DNA of 64,000 bases, taken from the NCBI GenBank assembly GCA_030390025.1, contig CM059432.1, positions 79,672,001 through 79,736,000 on the forward strand. Reading direction: 5' to 3'. Shown one piece after another: positions 1,383 to 44,835 of the stretch. Within the stretch, counting starts at the first letter, position 1. Each line of letters opens with the position of its first letter. The notes beneath the pieces were generated by a model, which saw only the letters and a list, made by a program, of their open reading frames with translations, was not told the origin of the DNA and searched no databases. A program made the translations under genes and the position numbers. Source of the DNA: Squalus acanthias (lineage: Eukaryota).

Positions 1383-1882
1383 CTACCTCGTGAAGGTGTT
1401 GGCTACCAGCTGCTCCCGAGCAGCCTTACTTTGAGCAGCAGTTGGCTCTTCCCCATCATGCCTTCCCACAGGCACATTGGCATTGTCCACGTCCTCCATT
1501 TCTGCAGGTAGTTCATCTGCAGCGTTAAGGGTCAGTCCTTCCTGCAGGGCAAAGTTATGCAAAGCACAACAGACCACCACAATCTTTGCCACTTTCGCAG
1601 GAGAATACTGCAAGGTCCCCCCTGACCTGTCCAGGCACCGGAAGCGTGATTTCAGAACTCCAATTGTCCTCTCCACCACTTGCCGTGTGGACACGTGTGC
1701 CTGGTTGTATCTCTCCTGAGCCTCATTATTGGTCTTGCGGTAGGGAGTCATCAGCCATGGTAGTAGTTTCTCCTTCTCTGGAGGAGACGGGCTTGGTTCC
1801 TCCGTCTGATTAGTTGTCTGTATTCGAAAATTCTCTGATACACAATCCCACAGAGGAACAGGAATTGATTGTGAAAGGGCAT
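1383..1882 (-). pseudogene. Harbinger (HARBI1-like, DDE_Tnp_4) transposase with large internal deletion and frameshift
   Basis: ATG at 1882 gives MPFHNQFLF...ARLLQRRRNY, joined out of frame at ~1760-1767 to LPWLMTPYRK...HVSTRQVVERTIGVLKSRFRCLD...CCALHNF, a typical C-terminal Harbinger transposase segment. Confidence 0.85.
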
Positions 1883-2654
1883 CTTTCTCTCACACAGGCT
1901 TCCTCTTCAAACTGAAAGTTGTAATGAAAAAATGGAAATAGTTGTTAAAGTAACTTTAGTTAAGTGAGTGGCTATAAAATCAGGTCGGGCTATGGTGGGA
2001 CACGTGCGCTATCGGCTTGGGAACACATCTACCCGCCACACGGCCCTAGCTGATTTTCCAAAACTGTAACATTTTCATAAATTCATACATACATACATAC
2101 TTACTTACTCATTTTCATCTTTAAAACTTTTTGAAACGTAAACAGTTCATTTTTAAACTTTCATTTTCACAGATAGATACCTAAATATGCCTTGTACACA
2201 CCCACAGTTGCTATACTACTCCAAATGGTCAAAACCCATTTTTAAAATTTTTAAAAAATTCCAAACTTATCTAAGACTTCATTTAATAAACTTTGGTGGC
2301 TTTCAGATTTAAAAAACTCACCTCAGTAGCCCCACTGCAAAAGGATTTATTCCTCCTGCTATCTCCGTATATTTAGAAATGGCTGCTGCTCCTGCTTTTA
2401 ACATGTGTAACTGCTAGGAGCTTACACACACTACTATCATTCACAAAAATCATGAAGTTTCAGACGCACGCGCAGAATCACCAGCCCACGCGATTACTCG
2501 GAGATCCCTGAAACTGACCCGACATGAAGTGCCGGTTTTCAGCGCATGCGCAGTGCATGCAGAAAACCGGCAATTGGAGAGAGAATACACGAGAGTACAC
2601 AGTGCGTACTCTCGCGTAGCGACACCAATTTTTGGCCCAATGTGTTTTATATGG

Positions 2655-7427: not shown

Positions 7428-7945
7428 AAAATTCATTCTTGGGATATCGGCGTCGCTGGCAAGGCCAAAATTTATTGCTAGTTGCCCTTGAGAAGGTGGT
7501 GGCCCTTTTTGAATCGCTTCAGTCCACGTGGTGAAGGTACTCCCAGAACACTGTTAGGTAGGGAGTTCCAGGATTTTGACCTAGTGATGATGAATGAACA
7601 ATATATCTAAGTTGGCATGGTGTGTGACTTGGAGGGGGACTTAGAGGTGGTGGTGTTCCCATGCATCTGCTTCCCTTGTCCTTCTAGGTGGTGGAGGTCA
7701 CAGGTTTGGGAGATGCTGCCAAAGAAGCCTTGGCACGTTGCTGCAGTGCATCCTGTAGATAGTACACACTGCAGTATGCTGGTGGAGGGAATGAATGTTT
7801 AAGCTGGTGGATGGTGTGCCGATCAAGCGGACTGCTTTGTCCTGGATGGTGTTGAGTATTGTTGCAGTTTCACCCTTCCAGGCAAGTGGAGAGTATTCCA
7901 TCACACTCCTGACTTGTGCCTTGTAGGTGGTGGAGGGATTTTGAC
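7428..7945 (-). mobile_element. 5'-truncated copy of the LINE family seen at 10329-13523
   Basis: Encodes MMEYSPLAW...DKAVRLIGTPS...; shares the 3' tail. Confidence 0.85.
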
Positions 7946-8199: not shown

Positions 8200-11100
8200 T
8201 CCTCCTGGAGGGGGAGCTTGCACACGAGTTCTGCTGCAGAAGAATCAGATGAGCACTTCGATGGGGCAGGCTACAAAAGAAGGCTGATGTATTGGATAGC
8301 CTGCCAGAAAGCCTGTGTTCAATGTCAAGAAGCATGGAGTAGACCGGCACCAAATTGGCGCAGAGCTTGGAGCCTATCCTTTCCAGCATGGAAGTGCTGA
8401 CCAACTCCATTAGTGCACTTGTGGATCCAACCATGATGCAGTGTCTGATGGCTGATGTCTCAGCTTCCATTGCAGCACAAGCAGCAGTCACCCAACGTCT
8501 GAGTGCTGCAGTGGAAGCTCAGAGTGCTGCCATCATGGCTCTGGACTCTAGTGTTAAAGAAACTTGCAGGGTGTCACAGCAGTTCAGCAATCTTTCCTCC
8601 AATAGATTACTAGGATTGCTGAGGTGCCGCCCCGGGGGAGTGCCAGTGGCTCCATGGAGCACGAATCTGCTGTCCTCTCAGGATGACAGTGCCCTTGCTG
8701 TTGCCTGTCAGCCAGCCAGCCCAGACTGCTGCCGCCCATGTCGAGATGGTGCAGTCTGCAGCCGGGCCTTCTAGGCCCAAAGCTGCTTGAGGTTGTCCTC
8801 CAAGGCCATCTGCAGTGTCCTCCACAAAGTCAGCAGCCTTCCACCAGCCATGCTGTAGCCACTGGGGTAGTACAGCGTAAGGGCACTTGGCCTGGCGCAG
8901 GCACTAAGGGAATGCACAAGGATGATTAGTTGACGTTTGTATACAATATAGTATGATTTGATTTATAAATTTGGTTTGGAATGTTTATTTTGTGTTGGCT
9001 TTTATTTTTGCATTGTGACCGGTGATCAGCTTTGAATACAGCAGGACTTGAGAATGAACAGAGGGCATGCAGAGGGCATCGCTGTGATGGCCAGTGACTG
9101 AGGGAAGGTAAGGTGTGGTACGGTTGGTGAATGGGAATTGGGGTTGTGGTTACCAGCAATGTTCCCCTAATTTTTTTTTTTGGATGTGCAGCCCCTTCAC
9201 AGTTTCGTGCATGTGCGAAATTTAACATTAGAAAAGCCATCCTTTTTGTCATGGTGGTTCAAATGCAGATAGCATAGCAGACTGCTGCAGAATGAAGGCA
9301 TCATGACAGCTGCCAGGATGCCGGGCATTGACCTGCATAATTCGCTGCCTATGGCCGCACAACAGCTGGATGTTGAGGGAGTGGAATACCTTTCAGTTCC
9401 GGTACATCAGAGTTGACTTGCGGCACCTGCAAAGTGATGTACGTGCAGTCAATTGCACCCTGCACCATGGGGAAGCCTGCAATCCTAGCAAAGCCGTGAG
9501 CTTGCTCCGCCTGCTACTGTCTGGCAAGAGAGAATGACCTCTTTAAATAGAGAGCCTCAGTGACCTCCCTTACGCAACAGTGGATGGCAAACTGCGAGAT
9601 GTTGCAAATATCTTCAGCTCCAGCCTGGAAGGAGCCAGATGCATAAAAGTTCATCACCACGGTCACCCTCACAGCCACTGGCAATGCGGTCCTTGCCCTG
9701 CATTGAGGTTACAGTTGTGGCTGCAGCAGGTAGCAGATTTCAGTGAGGACGTCCTTACTGAAGCGCAGACACCTCACACGTTGTTCCTCGCTGAGGTTTA
9801 GGTAGGAGAATTGCTTCCTGAACACCCTAGGCGGATATGGCCTCCTGATGAGAGCCTTTCTCGCCCCTTGTCCTGCTCTGCATGCCCTCTGTTCATTCTC
9901 AAGTCCTGCTGTATTCAAAGCTGAATTCCTACTAGTGCACCCATGTCTGGCAGCAAGTGGTTTGTGCAGAAGCCTTGAACGCAGGAAACAGTCCTTCAGC
10001 ACCTGCCACACCTCCCTGTAGACTTTGGCAACTTTAAACAACTGTAGAAAGCACCAAACACTTGTAGAACTGTAGCTACTAACCTGTAAGTAGTTGATGA
10101 TCCCTTTAAATAGCGCTGGTGGGGCTCCTTCCTGCTGTTGAACGTCTGCTCAGTTGTGGGAGGTTAAGAGAGGGCGTTAGCTTGAGCATTGAGCTCCAAA
10201 ATGGCAGCGCTGGCATCAAATCAGCGTTGCACGCTGATTGACGTCATAATCTGCCTGCTCTGCATACTTCCGGCGGGCGTTCACTGCGCACGCTAACGCA
10301 CTCAGGAATATGCCATCTTTCAAAAAAATTTTTTTATGGGATGTGGGCATCGCTGGCAAGGCCAGCATTTATCGCCCATCCCTAATTGCCCTTGAGAAGG
10401 TGGTGATGAGCCGCCGCCTTGAACCGCTGCAGTCCGTGTGGTGAAGGTACTCCCATCATAGGTAGGGAGTTCCAGGATTTTGACCCAGCGACGATGAAGG
10501 ATCGGTGATATACTTCTAAGTCAGGATGGTGTGTGACTTGGAGGGGAACTTGGAGGTGGTGGTGTTCCCATACACCTGCTGCCCTTGTCCTTCTAGATGG
10601 AAAAGGTTGCGGGTTTGGGAGGTGCTGCCGAAGAAGCCTTGGTGAGTTGCTGCAGTGCATCTTGTAGATGGTACACATTGCAGCCACGGTACACCGGTGG
10701 TGGAGGGAGTGAATGTTTATGGTGGTGGATGGGGTGCCAATCAAGCGGGCTGCTTTGTCCTGGATGGTGTCGAGCTTCTTGAGTGTTGTTGGAGCTGCAC
10801 TCATCCAGGCACACTCCTTACTTGTGCCTTGTAGATGGTGGAAAGGCTTTGGGGAGTCAGGAGGTGAGACACTCACTGCTGTATACCTAGCCTCTGACCT
10901 GCTCTTGTTGCCACAGTATTTATGTGGCTGGTCCAGTTAAGTTTCTGGTCAATGGTGACCCCCAGGATGTTGATGGTGGGGCATTCGGCGATGGTAATGC
11001 CGTTGAATGACAGGGGGCGGTGGTTAGACTCTCGCTTGTTGGAGATTGTCATTGCCTGGCACTTGTGTGGTGCGAATGTTACCTGCCACTTATAAGCCCA

Positions 11101-13631
11101 AGCCTGAACGTCGTCCAGGTCTTGTTGCTTGCGAGCATGGACTGCTTCATTATCTGAGGAGTTGTGAATGGTACTGAATGCTGTGCAGTACATCCCCATT
11201 TCTGACCTTATGTCGGAGGGAAGGTTATTGATGAAGCAGCTGAAGATGGTTGGGCCTAGGACACTGCCCTGAGGAACTTCTGCAGCGATGTCCTGGAGCT
11301 GTGATGATTGACCTTTGACCATCTTCCTTTGTGCTAGGTATGACTCCAGCCAGTGGAGAGATTTCCCATTGACTTCAGTTTTACTAGGGCTCCTTGATGC
11401 CACACTCGGTCAAATGCTGCCTTGATGTCAAGGGCAGTCACTCTCATCTCACCTCTGGAATTCAGCTCCTTTGTCCATGTTTGGACCAAGGCTGTAATGA
11501 GGTCAGGAGCTGAGTGGTCTTGGCGGAACCCAAACTGGGCATCAGTGAGCAGGTTATTGGTGAGTAAGTGCCGCTTGATAGCACTGTTGATGACACCTTC
11601 CATCACTTTGCTGATGATTGAGAATAGACTGATGGGGTGGTAATTGACTGGATTGAATTTGTCCTGCTTTTTGTGGACAGGACATACCTGGGCAGTTTTC
11701 CACATTGTTGGATAGATGCCAGTGTAGTAGCTGTACTGGAACAGCTTGGCTGGAGGTGCGGCTAGTTCTGCAGCACAAGTCCTCAGCACGATAGCCGGGA
11801 TGTTGTCGGGGCCCATAGCCTTTGCTGTATCCAGTGCGCTCAGCCGTTTCTTGATATCACGTGGAGTGAATCGAATTGGCTCAAGACTGGCTTCTGTGAT
11901 GGTGAGGATCTCCGGAGTAGGCCGATATGGATCATACACTTGGCTCTTCTGGCTGAATATGGTTGCAAACGCTTCAGCCTTGTCTTTTGCACTCACCTGC
12001 TGGGCTCCACCATCATTGAGGATGGGGATATTCATGGAGCCTCCTCCTCCCGTTAGTTGTTTAATGGTCCACCACCATTCACGACTGGATGTGGCAGGAC
12101 TGCAGTGCTTTGATCCTTTGATTGTGTGATCGCTTAGCCCTGTCTATAGCATGTTGTTTCCGCTTTTTAGCATGCATGTAGTCCTGTTTTGCAGCTTCCC
12201 TAGGTTGGCACCTCTTTTTTAGGTACGCCTGGTGCTGCTCCTGGCATGCTCTTCTCCACTCCTTACTGAATCAGGGTTGGTCCCCTGGCTTGATGGTAAT
12301 GGTAGAGTGAGGGATATGCTGGGCCATGAGGTTACAGATTGTGGTGGAATACAATTCTGCTGCTGCTGATGGCCCACAGCGCCTCATGGATGCCCAGTTT
12401 TGAGCTGCTAGATCTGTTCTGAATCTATCCCATTTAGCGCGGTGGTAGTGTCACATAACCCGATGGAGGGTGTCCACAATGACTGTGCGGTGGTCACTGC
12501 TACCAATACTGTCATGGACAGATGTATCTGCGACTGGTAGATTGGTGAGGATGAGGTCGAGTAGGTTTTTCCCTCGTGTTGATTCTCTCACCACCTGTTG
12601 CAGGCCCAGACTGGCAGCTATGTCCTTCAGGAGTCAGCCAGCTCGGTCAGTAGTGGTGCTACCGAGCTACTCTTGGTGATGGACATTGAAGTCCCCCACC
12701 CAGAGTACATTCTGTGCCCTTGCTACTCTCAGTGCTTCTTCCAAGTGGCTGTTCAACATGGAGGATTACTGATTCATCAGCTGAGGGTCAGCGGTAGGTG
12801 GTAATCAGCAGGAGGTTTCCATGCCCATGCTTGACTTGAAGCCATGAGACTTCATGGGGTCCGGAGTCAATGTTGAGGACTCCCAGGGCCACTCCTTCCC
12901 ATACCACGGTGCCGCCACCCCTGGTGGGTCTGTCCTGCCAGTAGGACAGGACATACCCAGGGATGGTGATGGAGGAGTTTGGGACATTGGCTGAAAGGTA
13001 TGATTCTGTGAGTATGAATATGTCAGGCTGTTGCTTGACTAGTCTGTGTGACAGTTCTCCCAATTTTGGCACAAGTCCCCAGATGTTAGTGAGGAGGACT
13101 TTGCAGGGTCGACTGGACTGGGTGTGCCGTTGCCGTGTCCGTAGTCTGTGCCGAGGTCGATGCTGGGTGGTCCGTCCGGTTTCATGCTTATTATTGTGTT
13201 TCGTAGCGGTTTGTTACAACTGAGTGGCTTGCTAGGTCATTTCAGAGGGAAGTTAAGAGTCAACCACATTGCTGTGGGTCTGGAGTCACATATAGGCCAG
13301 ACCAGGTAAAGGTGGCAGATTTCCTAAAGGACATTAGTGAACCAGATGGGTTTTTACAACAATCTGATAGTTTCATGGTTACCATTACTGATACGACTTT
13401 TTTTTATTAACTGAATTTAAATTCCCCAGCTGCCGTGGTGGGATTTGAACTCTCATCTCTGGATCATTAATCCAGGCCTCTGGATTACTAGCCCAGTGAC
13501 ATTACTACTATGCTACCGTTCCCTCACGCGATTCGCCTCAAGTGTGCGAGCGTGCCCTGTGTGCCATTTTTGAGCTCCAAGGGCACTCATAGCACCCAAA
13601 AAACGGGCACTACGATCTGAATTTTGCGCCC
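8200..13631. mobile_element. Degenerate PIF/Harbinger transposon (partner ORF remnants + 8200-8930; transposase remnants - ~9280-10040) interrupted by a LINE
   Basis: Minus strand encodes RRPYPPRVFR...FYASGSFQ...GFPMVQGAIDCT...PGSCHDAFILQQS with stops and frameshifts. Terminus ...CTGAATTTTGCGCCC at 13631. Left boundary uncertain. Confidence 0.8.
10329..13523 (-). mobile_element. Apparently full-length single-ORF LINE (APE endonuclease + RT; CR1/L2 group, Crack/Daphne-like, clade unresolved) with tRNA-like 5' head; ORF disrupted
   Basis: EN motifs TNIWGL, DIFILTES, DRPTRGGG (12788-13100). RT motifs [35 protein letters not shown] (10873-12035). A-rich 3' tail at 10329. Box A at 13505-13515, box B at 13441-13450. 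Confidence 0.9.
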
Positions 13632-40719: not shown

Positions 40720-43700
40720 GTGGAATTTTTTGAGGTTGTAACTAGCAGGGTACAATGTTCCCTCTAATTTTTTTTTATACTGAGCGGGCCACGAACTCCT
40801 TTTTTTCTGTGGGCAAATTTTACGACAACAACAACAACTTTTTACAATAACAACTTTTACAAAAACGCCAGCAACCACTTAAAAGCCTATATACAGTAAT
40901 GCCATATTGCCACCCCACAGTCTCAAATCATGAGACAATCAGACAAGGTTCTATACAAGTTTAACATAATTTCTCTGCTTTTGAATTCCATTCCTCTCGA
41001 ACCCCAGTGCTTTATTTGCACTTTTATGGCTTTTTGAACCTGCGTTGCTACTTTTAATGATTTGTGAATCTATACCCCTCGATCCCTTTGCACCTCTACT
41101 CCATTTAGACTCTTATTTTCCAAGGAGTAGGTCGCCTCCTTATTCCTCCTACCAAAATACACCACCTCACACTTATCTATATTGAAATTCATTTGTTATT
41201 TACATGCTCATTCTGCAAGTTTGTTTACGATAGAATTAATTAAAAGCTTTTACAAACTTGTACAAACTCTATTTAAAAAAAAAAAAATTACTTGTCAGAA
41301 ATGACTGGGATATAAAATAACTGCATAATAATGCATTAACACTTCAGAAACGCCACTCAGTTACACGGTTGTGCATCGACAAACAATCCAAAAGCCCAAG
41401 GTGAGCTGAAAGAGGCATATCCATCCAATTTGTATTAATTTTAAAATTTTCAACGTATTAGCTCATCCCTCATGTCACTATAGCAATGGCTGCACAAGCA
41501 GCAGGAGGAGCAGCTTTCCTATAGCGCTGACGGCTGGATGTCCACATAAGTAATTAGAATATTATTCACAATGCAACCAGACACTCAGCAAATATAAAGT
41601 GCTGTAGTTCTTTAGTTTACAGTATTAAAAAGAATTGAACAAAAACGGGTATTTTCAACTTCAATCACTTCCATTAATAAACGTTGTCTTCTTGAACCAG
41701 CACACCCCCCCCCCCCGCCCCCACGTAACATGTCAGAAATGTAGCACTTATTCACAAGTGCAGAAAAACACATACACAATTTGTGTCACCGAATTAAGAA
41801 CAACAAGCCGGAAAAGCTATGATTTAACAGAAATAAACATTCATTTTTCTTCCTGGACAGAAGAACCAATCGGACTGACTTGGAAATGTTTACTAGTATG
41901 GTGACGTAAAGATGTTAATTTACAAATTTTGCTTCTAATGTTTTGCTCTCAAACATTCTCCACAATATTAATCCCTGCGCTTAAGAGTAAGGAAGTCTTG
42001 CTACAATTGTACAGGCTTTGGTGAGACCACATCTGGAGTACTGTGCACAGTTTTGGTCTCCTTATCTGAGGAAGGATATACTTGCCTCAAAGGCAGTACA
42101 ACAAAGGCTTCACTAGATTGATCCCTGGGATGAGAGGGTTGTCCTATGAGGAGAGATTGAGTAGATTGGGCCTATACTCTCCGGAGTTTAGAAGAATGAG
42201 GTGATCTCATTAAAAATATACAAGATTCTGAGGGGATTGACAGGGTAGATATTGAGAGGTTGTTTCCCTTGGCTGGAGAGTCTAGAACTAGGGGGTATAG
42301 TCTTCGGATAAGGGGTTGGCCATTTAGTACGGCGATGAGGAGGAATTTCTTCACTTAAGAGGGTTGTGAATCTTTGGAATTCTCTACCCCAGAGGGCTGT
42401 GGATGCTCAGTTGTTGAGCATATTCAAGGCTGAGATAGATAGATAGATTTTTGGATTCTAAGGGAATACAAGGATATGGGATCGGGCGGGAAAGTGGAGT
42501 TGAGGTCGAAGATCAGCCATGATCTTATTGAATGGTGGAGCAGGCTTGAAGGGCTGTATGGCCTACTACTGCTCCTAAGAACATTCTTATGTTCTTAAGC
42601 GAAGTGTTTCAGCCTTTGCTTGTTAAAATTGGGGACCAAAGTGAATGGCTCAAAAACTGGTGTCAAATCAAACAATTGATCCAAAAGCATTTGAGCCTCA
42701 AAGGGTAGCAGTTATATTTGGGTTAAGTACTGCAGAATCATTGACATCATTGGCACGACAGTTTTTTTTAAAAGAGCCCTTGTAAAGGGGGACTGATTTT
42801 CTGGTAATGCTTGCATTTTTGGCTAACACCCATGCCTGGACCCTCTGACTAATGACTTGTTTGGCTGGTTAATGTAGCCATACTGGCTGCTTTGCATAAA
42901 CCAGGCTGTGAATGAGGAAATTCTTGACATCAGGGGCCATTTTTGGGGCAGATGGAAGCTCTGTCTCAAACAAGTCCCCACAGAAACTACCAACATAGGC
43001 TGAGACCTGTTGGATCCATGTCCTGATACAATTTTTGGCCTCTCCAAAGGACTTCCAGGGGACTTACCAGTGTGGCCAATAGCCCTGCAGATTAGTAAGA
43101 TGATGTTTCTTTAACTTAACACTACGCTTGTTACTGGCCAGGATTGCGTGCTGAGGTACTTACTGACTTGCCTTTCTTTGACTGTCTAATAACCCACTCG
43201 GGCCGCACTCTCACTCCCGTGGCACACTGAAGCTTCGCGCTGGCGACGCTGACTGGAGGCGGCATTTGCGCGGTAACCGCCCCTCAGTGACAGCCGTCTG
43301 ATTGGCAAGCCAGTGTGATTGGCAGGCCAGACCAGCCACTGACGTGCGTCGGGAGGGTCCCACCTTCTCTTTCCACTGATTGACCGGGGAACCCTGGTTG
43401 AGAGAGCCTGCAAATGCACGTCAGTGGCTGGACAGGCCTGCCAATCATACGGCTGCTTGTGAGGTGTGGTTACCGCGCAGCTGCCTGCCTCGAGTCAGCA
43501 TCCCCGGCGCGAAGCTTTAGTGTGCCGCGGGAGCGCGAGTGCGTGGCCCGCTTATTTAACTGCGTGGCCTAATCAAGAGTGCTGCGCGGCTGCGCACGCG
43601 TGCAGCTTAGGGGGGAACAGTGGCAGGGTAGATAAGGGCGAACCAGTGAATGTAGTGTATTTGGATTTTCAAAAAGCATTCAATAAGGTGCCACACGAGA

Positions 43701-44835
43701 TTATTGCACAAAATTAGGGCTCATGGAATTGGGGTAATATATTGGCATGGATTAAGGATTGGTTAGCGGACAGAACAGAGAGTAGGAATAAATGGTTAAT
43801 TTTTGGGTTGGCAGGCTGTAACTAGAGGAGTACCGCAAGGATCAGTGCTTGGGCCTCAGCTATTTACAATATGTATCAATGACCTTAGATGAGGGGACTG
43901 AGTGTAATGTATCCAAGTTTGCTGACGATGCAAAGTTAGGTGGGAAAGTAAGCTGTGAGGAGAATGCAAAGAGGCTGCAAAGGGACAAGTTAAGTGAGTG
44001 GGCAATAACATGGCAGGCGGAATATAATGTTGGGAAGTGTGAAGTTATCCACTTTGGTAGGAAAAATAGAAACGCAGAATATTTTTTAAATGGTAAGCTC
44101 CTGGGAAATGTTGGTATTCAGAGGGACCTGGGTGTCCTTGTACACAAATCACAGAAAGATAACATGGAGGTACAGCAAGCAATTAGGAAAAGCAAATGGT
44201 ATGTTGGCCTTTATTACAAAGGGATTGGAGTATAAGAGTAAAGAATTCTTACTACAACTATATAGGACCTTGCTGAGACCGCACCTGGAGTACTGTGTAC
44301 AGTTTTGGTCTCCTTACCTAAGGAAGGATATACTTGCCGTAGAAGGAGTGCAACAAAGGTTCACCAGACTGATTCCTGGGATGAGGGAATTGTCCTATAA
44401 GGAGAGATTGAGTAGACTAGGTTTATATTCCCTAAAGTTGAGAAGAATGAGAGGTGATCTCATTGAAACATATAAAATTCTCAAAGGGCTTGACTGGGTA
44501 GATGCTGGGTGGTTGTTTCCCCTGGCTGGGGAGTCCAGAACTAGCTGTCACAGTCTCAGAATAAGGGGTCGACCATTTAGGACTGAGATGAGGAGAAATT
44601 TCTTCACTCAGAGGGTGGTGAATCTTAGGAATTCTCTACCCCAGAGAGCTGTGGATGCTCAATCGTTGAGTATATTCAAGACAGAGAACGATAGATTCTT
44701 GGATACTCAGGGAATCAAGGGATATGGGGATAGTGCGGTAAGGTGGAGTTGAGGTAGAAGATTAGCCATGATCTTATTGAATGGCGGAGCAGGCTCGAAG
44801 GGCCGAATGGCCTACTCCTGCTCCTAGTTCTTATG
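40720..44835 (+). mobile_element. CR1 3' fragment split by hAT element
   Basis: EFFEVVTSRV (to 40752) continues as [17 protein letters not shown] from 43631; ORF 44090-44752. Confidence 0.9.
40753..43622. mobile_element. Non-autonomous hAT transposon, 2870 bp, containing CR1 fragments (~40930-41230 -, ~41980-42595 +)
   Basis: Perfect 8-bp TSD GCAGGGTA (40745-40752, 43623-43630); TIRs CAATGTTCCCTCTAA / TTAGGGGGGAACAGTG. Confidence 0.9.

Follow-up and report, generated by a model that had tools for sequence, protein, structure and literature searches.

LINEs (long interspersed nuclear elements) are taught as coding elements that are transcribed by RNA polymerase II (Pol II) or co-transcribed, and short interspersed nuclear elements (SINEs) as short passengers of RNA polymerase III (Pol III). 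R2 and other LINEs have an uncapped RNA whose translation needs no initiator AUG; in the case of R2, Pol I co-transcribes the element and a ribozyme frees its RNA. In the CR1 group, Zenon has been reported from sharks, rays, coelacanth and hagfish as a LINE that lacks the first open reading frame (ORF1) and ends in a poly-A tail (available text of Stuart et al. 2026, PMC13343379). Here we describe a Zenon element in a 64,000-nt stretch of the Squalus acanthias genome (contig CM059432.1, positions 79,672,001 to 79,736,000), the whole of which is called the window. This decayed copy belongs to a family, of a kind common in sharks and rays, of 3.3-kb LINEs that have one ORF and begin with a tRNA-derived head. 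The majority sequence of its family is free of runs of four or more T (T4) on the sense strand, T-runs are avoided in a graded and T-specific manner, and the ORF was under coding constraint. We assign a probability of about 0.55 to the reading that Pol III transcribed the source elements, starting from the tRNA-derived head, and that selection for read-through purged T-runs from the sense strand.

The family majority was built from 26 copies, comprising the window copy and 25 copies picked for length among 38 fetched. It is 3,305 nt long, with a single 973-codon frame from nt 330 and an A-tail. The majority has no ORF1, the frames upstream are all short, and the long frame aligns over its full length with endonuclease-reverse transcriptase (RT) proteins. 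Stops were present in all 47 of the best full-length matches, so that no intact copy is among them. Because the shared ORF variants concentrate at third codon positions (24 of 41, P 0.0008), the source elements must have been under coding constraint.

The assignment to Zenon is based on the 5' match to SquAca_Zenon-1 and not on the RT tree. The first 400 letters of this published consensus are near-identical by eye to the majority (3,314 versus 3,305 nt in total); both lack ORF1 and carry poly-A tails, and no sequence difference was noted in the available part of PMC13343379. The RT tree held 35 rows, with no named Zenon among them and 2 omitted for short alignments. In this tree, the family stood apart from the CR1 and L2 of its own genome and grouped (97/94) with a lancelet element, further relatives and L219, the closest foreign LINE.

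The tRNA-derived head is part of the family. A head search of the 3.7-Gb genome returned 6,760 candidates; among the best 40, which were scored, 36 of the 39 non-self matches continue into the ORF, the other 3 being short forms made of head and tail. Such a set is biased towards copies resembling the query, and a set found with an endonuclease-region query is freer of that bias. In the latter, 26 of 29 copies extend into the 330-nt 5' module and 11 of 29 reach its first 19 nt, with four of the 29 being duplicates of one insertion. The 13 truncated copies had no other upstream sequence in common, and an exact-pattern search gave 1,366 matches across the module-ORF junction. The Rfam tRNA match in the window copy (13459-13515) scored 20.1 bits, under the gathering score of 29, and the heads of 6 of 15 other loci gave matches of 21.6-26 bits, also below gathering. 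The two box-like motifs of the head were assigned by comparison with the A- and B-box consensus.

The published elasmobranch consensuses show the same organization. All seven (SquAca_Zenon-1/2/3, CarCar, RhiTyp, ScyCan and HypSab) open with a tRNA-like head, and no TTTT was seen by eye in their first 400 letters (PMC13343379 supplement). By eye, the A- and B-box motifs are kept in the consensuses of 4 of 5 species while the intervening sequence differs, and the same head-ORF join occurs in five species' consensuses (same supplement). The three rows from hagfish and coelacanth in the available part of PMC13343379 show no such head and contain several T4+ runs; their 5' ends may be incomplete.

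The family majority contains zero T4 and seven T3 runs in 3,305 nt, and the counts were the same with 125 alignments from 108 loci. The zero T4 count in the ORF had a P of 0.11 under synonymous permutation and 0.14 when the third base was resampled within its codon block; it was 0.015 when any synonym was resampled and 0.028 with pooled CR1/L2/RTE codon usage. Under synonymous permutation of the ORF, TT occurred 74 times against 90.7 expected (z -4.2) and TTT 5 times against 11.2 (P 0.003-0.005). TTT is the rarest trinucleotide in the majority (observed/expected 0.28). Where a synonymous choice allowed T, it was used at 140/477 sites (29%) when the resulting run was 1, at 40/226 (18%) when it was 2, at 5/54 (9%) when it was 3, and at 0/6 (0) when it was 4 or more. 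No fall graded by run length was found for A or G, and only a weak one for C (P 0.07). This graded, T-specific avoidance is a stronger signal than the zero T4 count. Furthermore, Phe makes up 1.85% of the family protein, below 108 of 109 related proteins of at least 800 aa. Non-canonical terminators and T-dense windows numbered 0-1, which was not significant, and the ORF gave no signal of avoiding AATAAA, ATTTA, pyrimidine tracts or 5' splice motifs.

The family was compared with CR1, L2 and RTE majorities from the same genome, built from 29 loci each. The observed/expected ratio of TTT was 0.25 in the Zenon family versus 0.92 in CR1, 0.70 in L2 and 0.85 in RTE. The odds ratio for runs of at least 3 was 0.22 in Zenon versus 0.61 in CR1 (z -1.9), 1.03 in L2 (z -2.8), 0.83 in RTE (z -2.2) and 1.41 in L219 (z -3.6). 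L219, from the same clade, is poly-A tailed, lacks any tRNA match and contains 20 T4 runs. For the foreign set, 80 metagenome LINE loci were considered, and the 71 whose frame reaches at least 300 codons were compared. Against the three same-genome families and these mostly distant foreign ORFs, the Zenon family had the lowest TT and TTT ratios. Its low values of TT, TTT, TT at codon junctions and Phe were each matched by 0/71 foreign ORFs; T4-free ORFs were 0/42 among those of at least 600 codons.

Host mutation after insertion was considered as the cause and rejected: because post-insertion substitutions are strand-symmetric, the T bias does not come from mutation of the inserted copies. Over 80.8 kb of individual copies, T4 was seen 14 times and at 12 positions, or 0.17 per kb where the window averages 7.4; this fits neutral decay of the majority, which predicts 0.78 T4 per copy. 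Twelve further copies, found via a foreign protein, contained 6 T4.

The preliminary description of the window copy had pointed to the near-absence of TTTT on its sense strand. Its counts were exact, with one run of at least four T (AAAA on the forward strand), 13 runs of at least four A, and four sense T4+ runs in a CR1 at 43623-44835. The single run was correctly considered copy-specific: the window copy reads CTTTTCC and the family majority CTCTTCC, and the 3' fragment of the same family at 7431-7934, which has another T4 at 7467-7470, lacks one at the homologous site. The scarcity is not beyond chance in a single copy (mononucleotide shuffle mean 3.9, P 0.078; dinucleotide shuffle mean 1.5, P 0.53). 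The sense strand contains 19.9% T, with TT at 0.71 of expected and TTT at 10 versus 25 expected. The caveat that LINE sense strands are generally A-rich fails as an explanation, the strand being A- and C-rich and T-poor, and A-runs being about as frequent as expected (11 vs 9.8). T7 at 10322-10328 lies just beyond the interval first described, directly after the A-tail.

The checks proposed in that description gave divided results. The consensus is T4-free as anticipated, and the T4 depletion falls short of significance under the strict synonymous shuffle (P 0.11). The graded avoidance exceeds that of CR1, L2 and RTE from the same genome, and the RTE, without a tRNA head, still has only one T4+. 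Selection for Pol III read-through, as had been suggested, is partly supported by the missing internal T4, the tRNA head and the graded T-specific avoidance after codon controls, while the T4 depletion itself is borderline. The initial observation was thus correct but weak alone, the family-level bias is real, and the inference of Pol III transcription is plausible.

If the source elements were Pol III-transcribed, TFIIIC would bind the A and B boxes, and Pol III would read 3.3 kb from these internal boxes until it met a first T-run, either within the tail or past it. T-runs on the sense strand would be selected against, favouring full-length read-through. The uncapped RNA would be translated without a normal start, and the protein would use the A-tail to copy its own RNA by target-primed reverse transcription; the same protein would also mobilise the short derivative. 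In-frame ATGs are missing from the long frame up to the endonuclease (none before residue 286), and nine ATGs lie upstream, so translation would be non-canonical under any polymerase. Human Pol III uses T4 as its minimal terminator with 18-75% efficiency, and T6 is complete, according to the available text of PMC5725217. tRNA-type promoters can give translated reporter RNA, and removal of TTTT about doubled the activity in the assays described in PMC8223928. The fuller proposal is that an autonomous coding LINE swapped its promoter for a SINE head in the shark-ray ancestor, produced a 3.3-kb uncapped Pol III mRNA, and had its codons and Phe content reshaped; we hold it at even odds.

Several results weigh against Pol III transcription. 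Under an order-1 Markov null for the whole element, the zero T4 count is borderline (P 0.18), and the shortfall of TTT that is left once the lack of TT is accounted for is marginal (7 vs 12.5, P 0.07). Runs of T1-T3 gave no termination in human cells in the available text of PMC5725217, so the best-powered signals, TT and TTT, lie below the length of a terminator; to produce them, one would have to assume pausing or weak termination that adds up along the 3.3 kb. The same-genome RTE starts with GC repeats at its 5' end, uses an ATG start and lacks a tRNA head, yet its 2.6 kb contain a single T4+ run, located where the ORF ends; T4 absence alone is therefore not diagnostic. The CR1 ORF2 majority (L099-L128) is also low, with T4 at 3 vs 7.7 (P 0.01) and TT at z -2.5. 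Phe is lower still in the lancelet relative (1.5%). Shared subfamily variants gave no sign of avoiding T-runs, with 4/12 beside T vs 523/1,229 private ones, an underpowered comparison. Most of the 71 foreign ORFs are distant, and their T content is high (median 31% vs 19%), so that only composition-corrected ratios compare fairly. No RNA record carrying the family was listed. Contigs of four sequencing runs from four organisms, of uncertain RNA origin, cover 30/30 bins, and strand, start and polymerase are unreadable from contigs.

The 3' ends also bear on termination. A-rich tails terminate 44 of the 45 ends collected, the remaining one being a false match. T-runs of at least four occur in 11 of the 44 true ends. 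Because their lengths vary per copy and post-insertion tail slippage is possible, their role as built-in terminators is in doubt. Target-site duplications were limited to 4 weak candidates of 5-6 nt among the 26 copies.

Among the alternatives, it is possible but unlikely that UU, together with UA, is avoided for a reason other than Pol III, such as RNase L-type cleavage or U-tract factors; the missing T4 would then follow from the TT deficit, whichever polymerase acts. RNase L cuts after UU and UA (PMC7756014, as far as its available text states), and both TT (z -4.2) and TA (z -3.6) are depleted at codon junctions of the family. The order-1 model accounts for the zero T4 and nearly for TTT, and weaker TT avoidance exists in CR1 and RTE. 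However, TA is depleted in all families except CR1, whereas TT depletion is found mainly in the Zenon family: RTE and L2 have equally strong TA depletion (observed/expected 0.45 and 0.58) without TT depletion (0.86 and 0.90). A host nuclease should hit all LINE RNAs, and the conserved A and B boxes are left unexplained. A PF06479 search yielded 2 exons and no clear RNase L, a weak negative; both matched exons probably resemble IRE1 and not RNase L.

Somewhat more doubtful is transcription by Pol II or by read-through from a host promoter, with the head being the end of a SINE that was captured and retained for its RNA structure, and T4 missing only because the lineage is T-poor. The same-genome RTE is indeed T-poor (16.7%) and nearly T4-free, LINE base composition differs by clade and lineage (available text of PMC7140322), and the single-copy shuffles were not significant. 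Lepidopteran Zenon 5' ends have no Pol III promoter in the available account of PMC6740152. On the other hand, the TT and TTT deficits persist after composition and codon controls, and the box motifs are retained in most of the compared species' consensuses despite diverged intervening sequence. AATAAA at 121 and 132, together with the nine upstream ATGs, would fit a capped, scanned mRNA poorly.

That the long form never replicated by itself from its head, and was instead a SINE-LINE chimera mobilised by a different Zenon source without a head, is very improbable and already largely refuted: the ORF does start exactly at the end of the SINE-shared module without an in-frame ATG, but no other 5' end was found among the copies, the shared variants place the ORF under coding constraint, and the same join recurs in the five species' consensuses seen.

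The features of the window copy and its neighbouring fragment are listed in Table 1.

Table 1. Zenon-related features in the window (window positions).
Feature	Position	Strand	Basis or remark
Full-length decayed Zenon-type LINE	10337..13523	-	92.8% to family majority, indels counted
tRNA-derived head	13441..13523	-	Family copies begin sharply at the first G
A-box-like motif TAGCATAGTAG	13505..13515	-	Located motif; majority version ends TGG
Two tandem anticodon-arm-like hairpins, 21-nt period, between the A- and B-box motifs	13459..13496	-	
B-box-like motif GAGTTCAAATCC	13441..13452	-	Located motif
Remainder of 5' module, common to the short SINE-type derivative	13214..13440	-	Ends at TAA before the long frame
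Final ATG of the upstream set, not in frame with the long ORF	13183..13185	-	In the majority, starts an overlapping frame of 48 codons
First ORF piece: basic N-terminus and beginning of AP-endonuclease region	12788..13213	-	Homology to endonuclease-RT proteins
ORF piece: first half of reverse transcriptase	11334..12143	-	PF00078, E 6.7e-13
ORF piece: second half of reverse transcriptase	10873..11409	-	PF00078, E 2.7e-13
ORF piece: C-terminal region and stop	10382..10936	-	
Sole sense TTTT within the copy	10601..10604	-	Private change from the family state
3' untranslated region and tail	10322..10381	-	A7 then T7
3' fragment of the family, truncated at its 5' end and more diverged	7431..7934	-	83% to majority

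The Pfam scan gave no match for the first ORF piece, and ARAGORN found no tRNA gene in the window. No ribozyme family of Rfam matched the 5' end of the Zenon family or of L219, and folding of the 5' 360 nt showed no unusual structure (z -1.09). The out-of-frame ATG, at family position 358, and its overlapping frame occur at the same offset in the first 400 letters of the shark and ray consensuses.

The LINE seems to be inserted in a Harbinger-like element, with 16-nt inverted arms at 10191-10206 and 13562-13577. A Harbinger-type DDE transposase fragment (PF13359) lies at 1383-1889 (-), and the frames at 9709-10149 (-) and 8343-8774 (+), without a Pfam match, presumably represent Harbinger-type parts. 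Perfect 49-nt inverted arms (9026-9074 and 9876-9924, 801 nt apart) were also observed in apparent DNA-transposon remnants and possibly reflect a local inversion.

The short derivative consists of the 5' 330 nt joined to the last ~80-100 nt of the LINE (L016, L023, L073, L311-L315; L007, L029, L064). One junction was present in 117 exact copies, and because the other junctions differ, the short derivative arose more than once. Several protein models predicted for sharks and rays and named after host genes (P0001, P0002, P0005-P0008, P0011, P0023, P0025) also contain pieces of the LINE, likely as annotation artefacts.

A second tRNA-headed repeat was examined as an independent LINE and rejected, since it proved to be a SINE of 370 nt. 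This separate ~370-nt SINE (L328:1300-1680 (-); L329-L348) gave 2,602 candidates, the best 40 of which scored 78-83%. It ends in GAA/GAT-type repeats, and 20/20 fetched copies stop by ~380 nt. In one copy the body of the SINE matched a CPEB3/HDV-like ribozyme model at 26.4 bits, below the gathering score of 35 (E 7e-5 in 501 nt).

The Zenon family and its consensus are already published. In the searched literature, to which Repbase and Dfam were external, the tRNA head, the T-run avoidance and the Pol III reading were not found. The terms 'tRNA' and 'polymerase III' have 0 occurrences in the main text of PMC13343379 as available, and the head and T-run avoidance therefore appear undescribed there. 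If this high-copy LINE is driven by its tRNA-type promoter, Pol III would be able to make, in a vertebrate, a natural RNA of 3 kb that is translated, and avoidance of its terminator could shape the codons and composition of a protein. The family would then offer a direct system for cap-independent, AUG-less translation of Pol III RNA, and SINE heads would be transferable to LINEs.

Among known systems, R2 is similar in that the long frame of shark Zenon opens directly after a stop with no in-frame ATG, and differs in that the 5' region of shark Zenon has no Rfam ribozyme match. The lepidopteran Zenon and Persaeus likewise combine a single-ORF 3.3-kb CR1-group LINE with a short two-end derivative (available text of PMC6740152). 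Persaeus is stated there to lack tRNA homology and a Pol III promoter, whereas the long and short forms in sharks are both tRNA-headed. By the definition of tRNA-derived SINEs (SINE2), both forms possess a head with boxes, while being short and non-coding applies to the short derivative only. HE1, SacSINE1 and the CmiSINEs, in the available text of PMC5499810 and PMC3747384, share with the shark family a tRNA head with A and B boxes, a LINE-type 3' end and no internal T4, the likeness to HE1 and SacSINE1 being drawn from descriptions and not from sequence alignment. These SINEs are a few hundred bases long and non-coding, whereas shark Zenon carries a 973-codon endonuclease-RT frame behind such a head.

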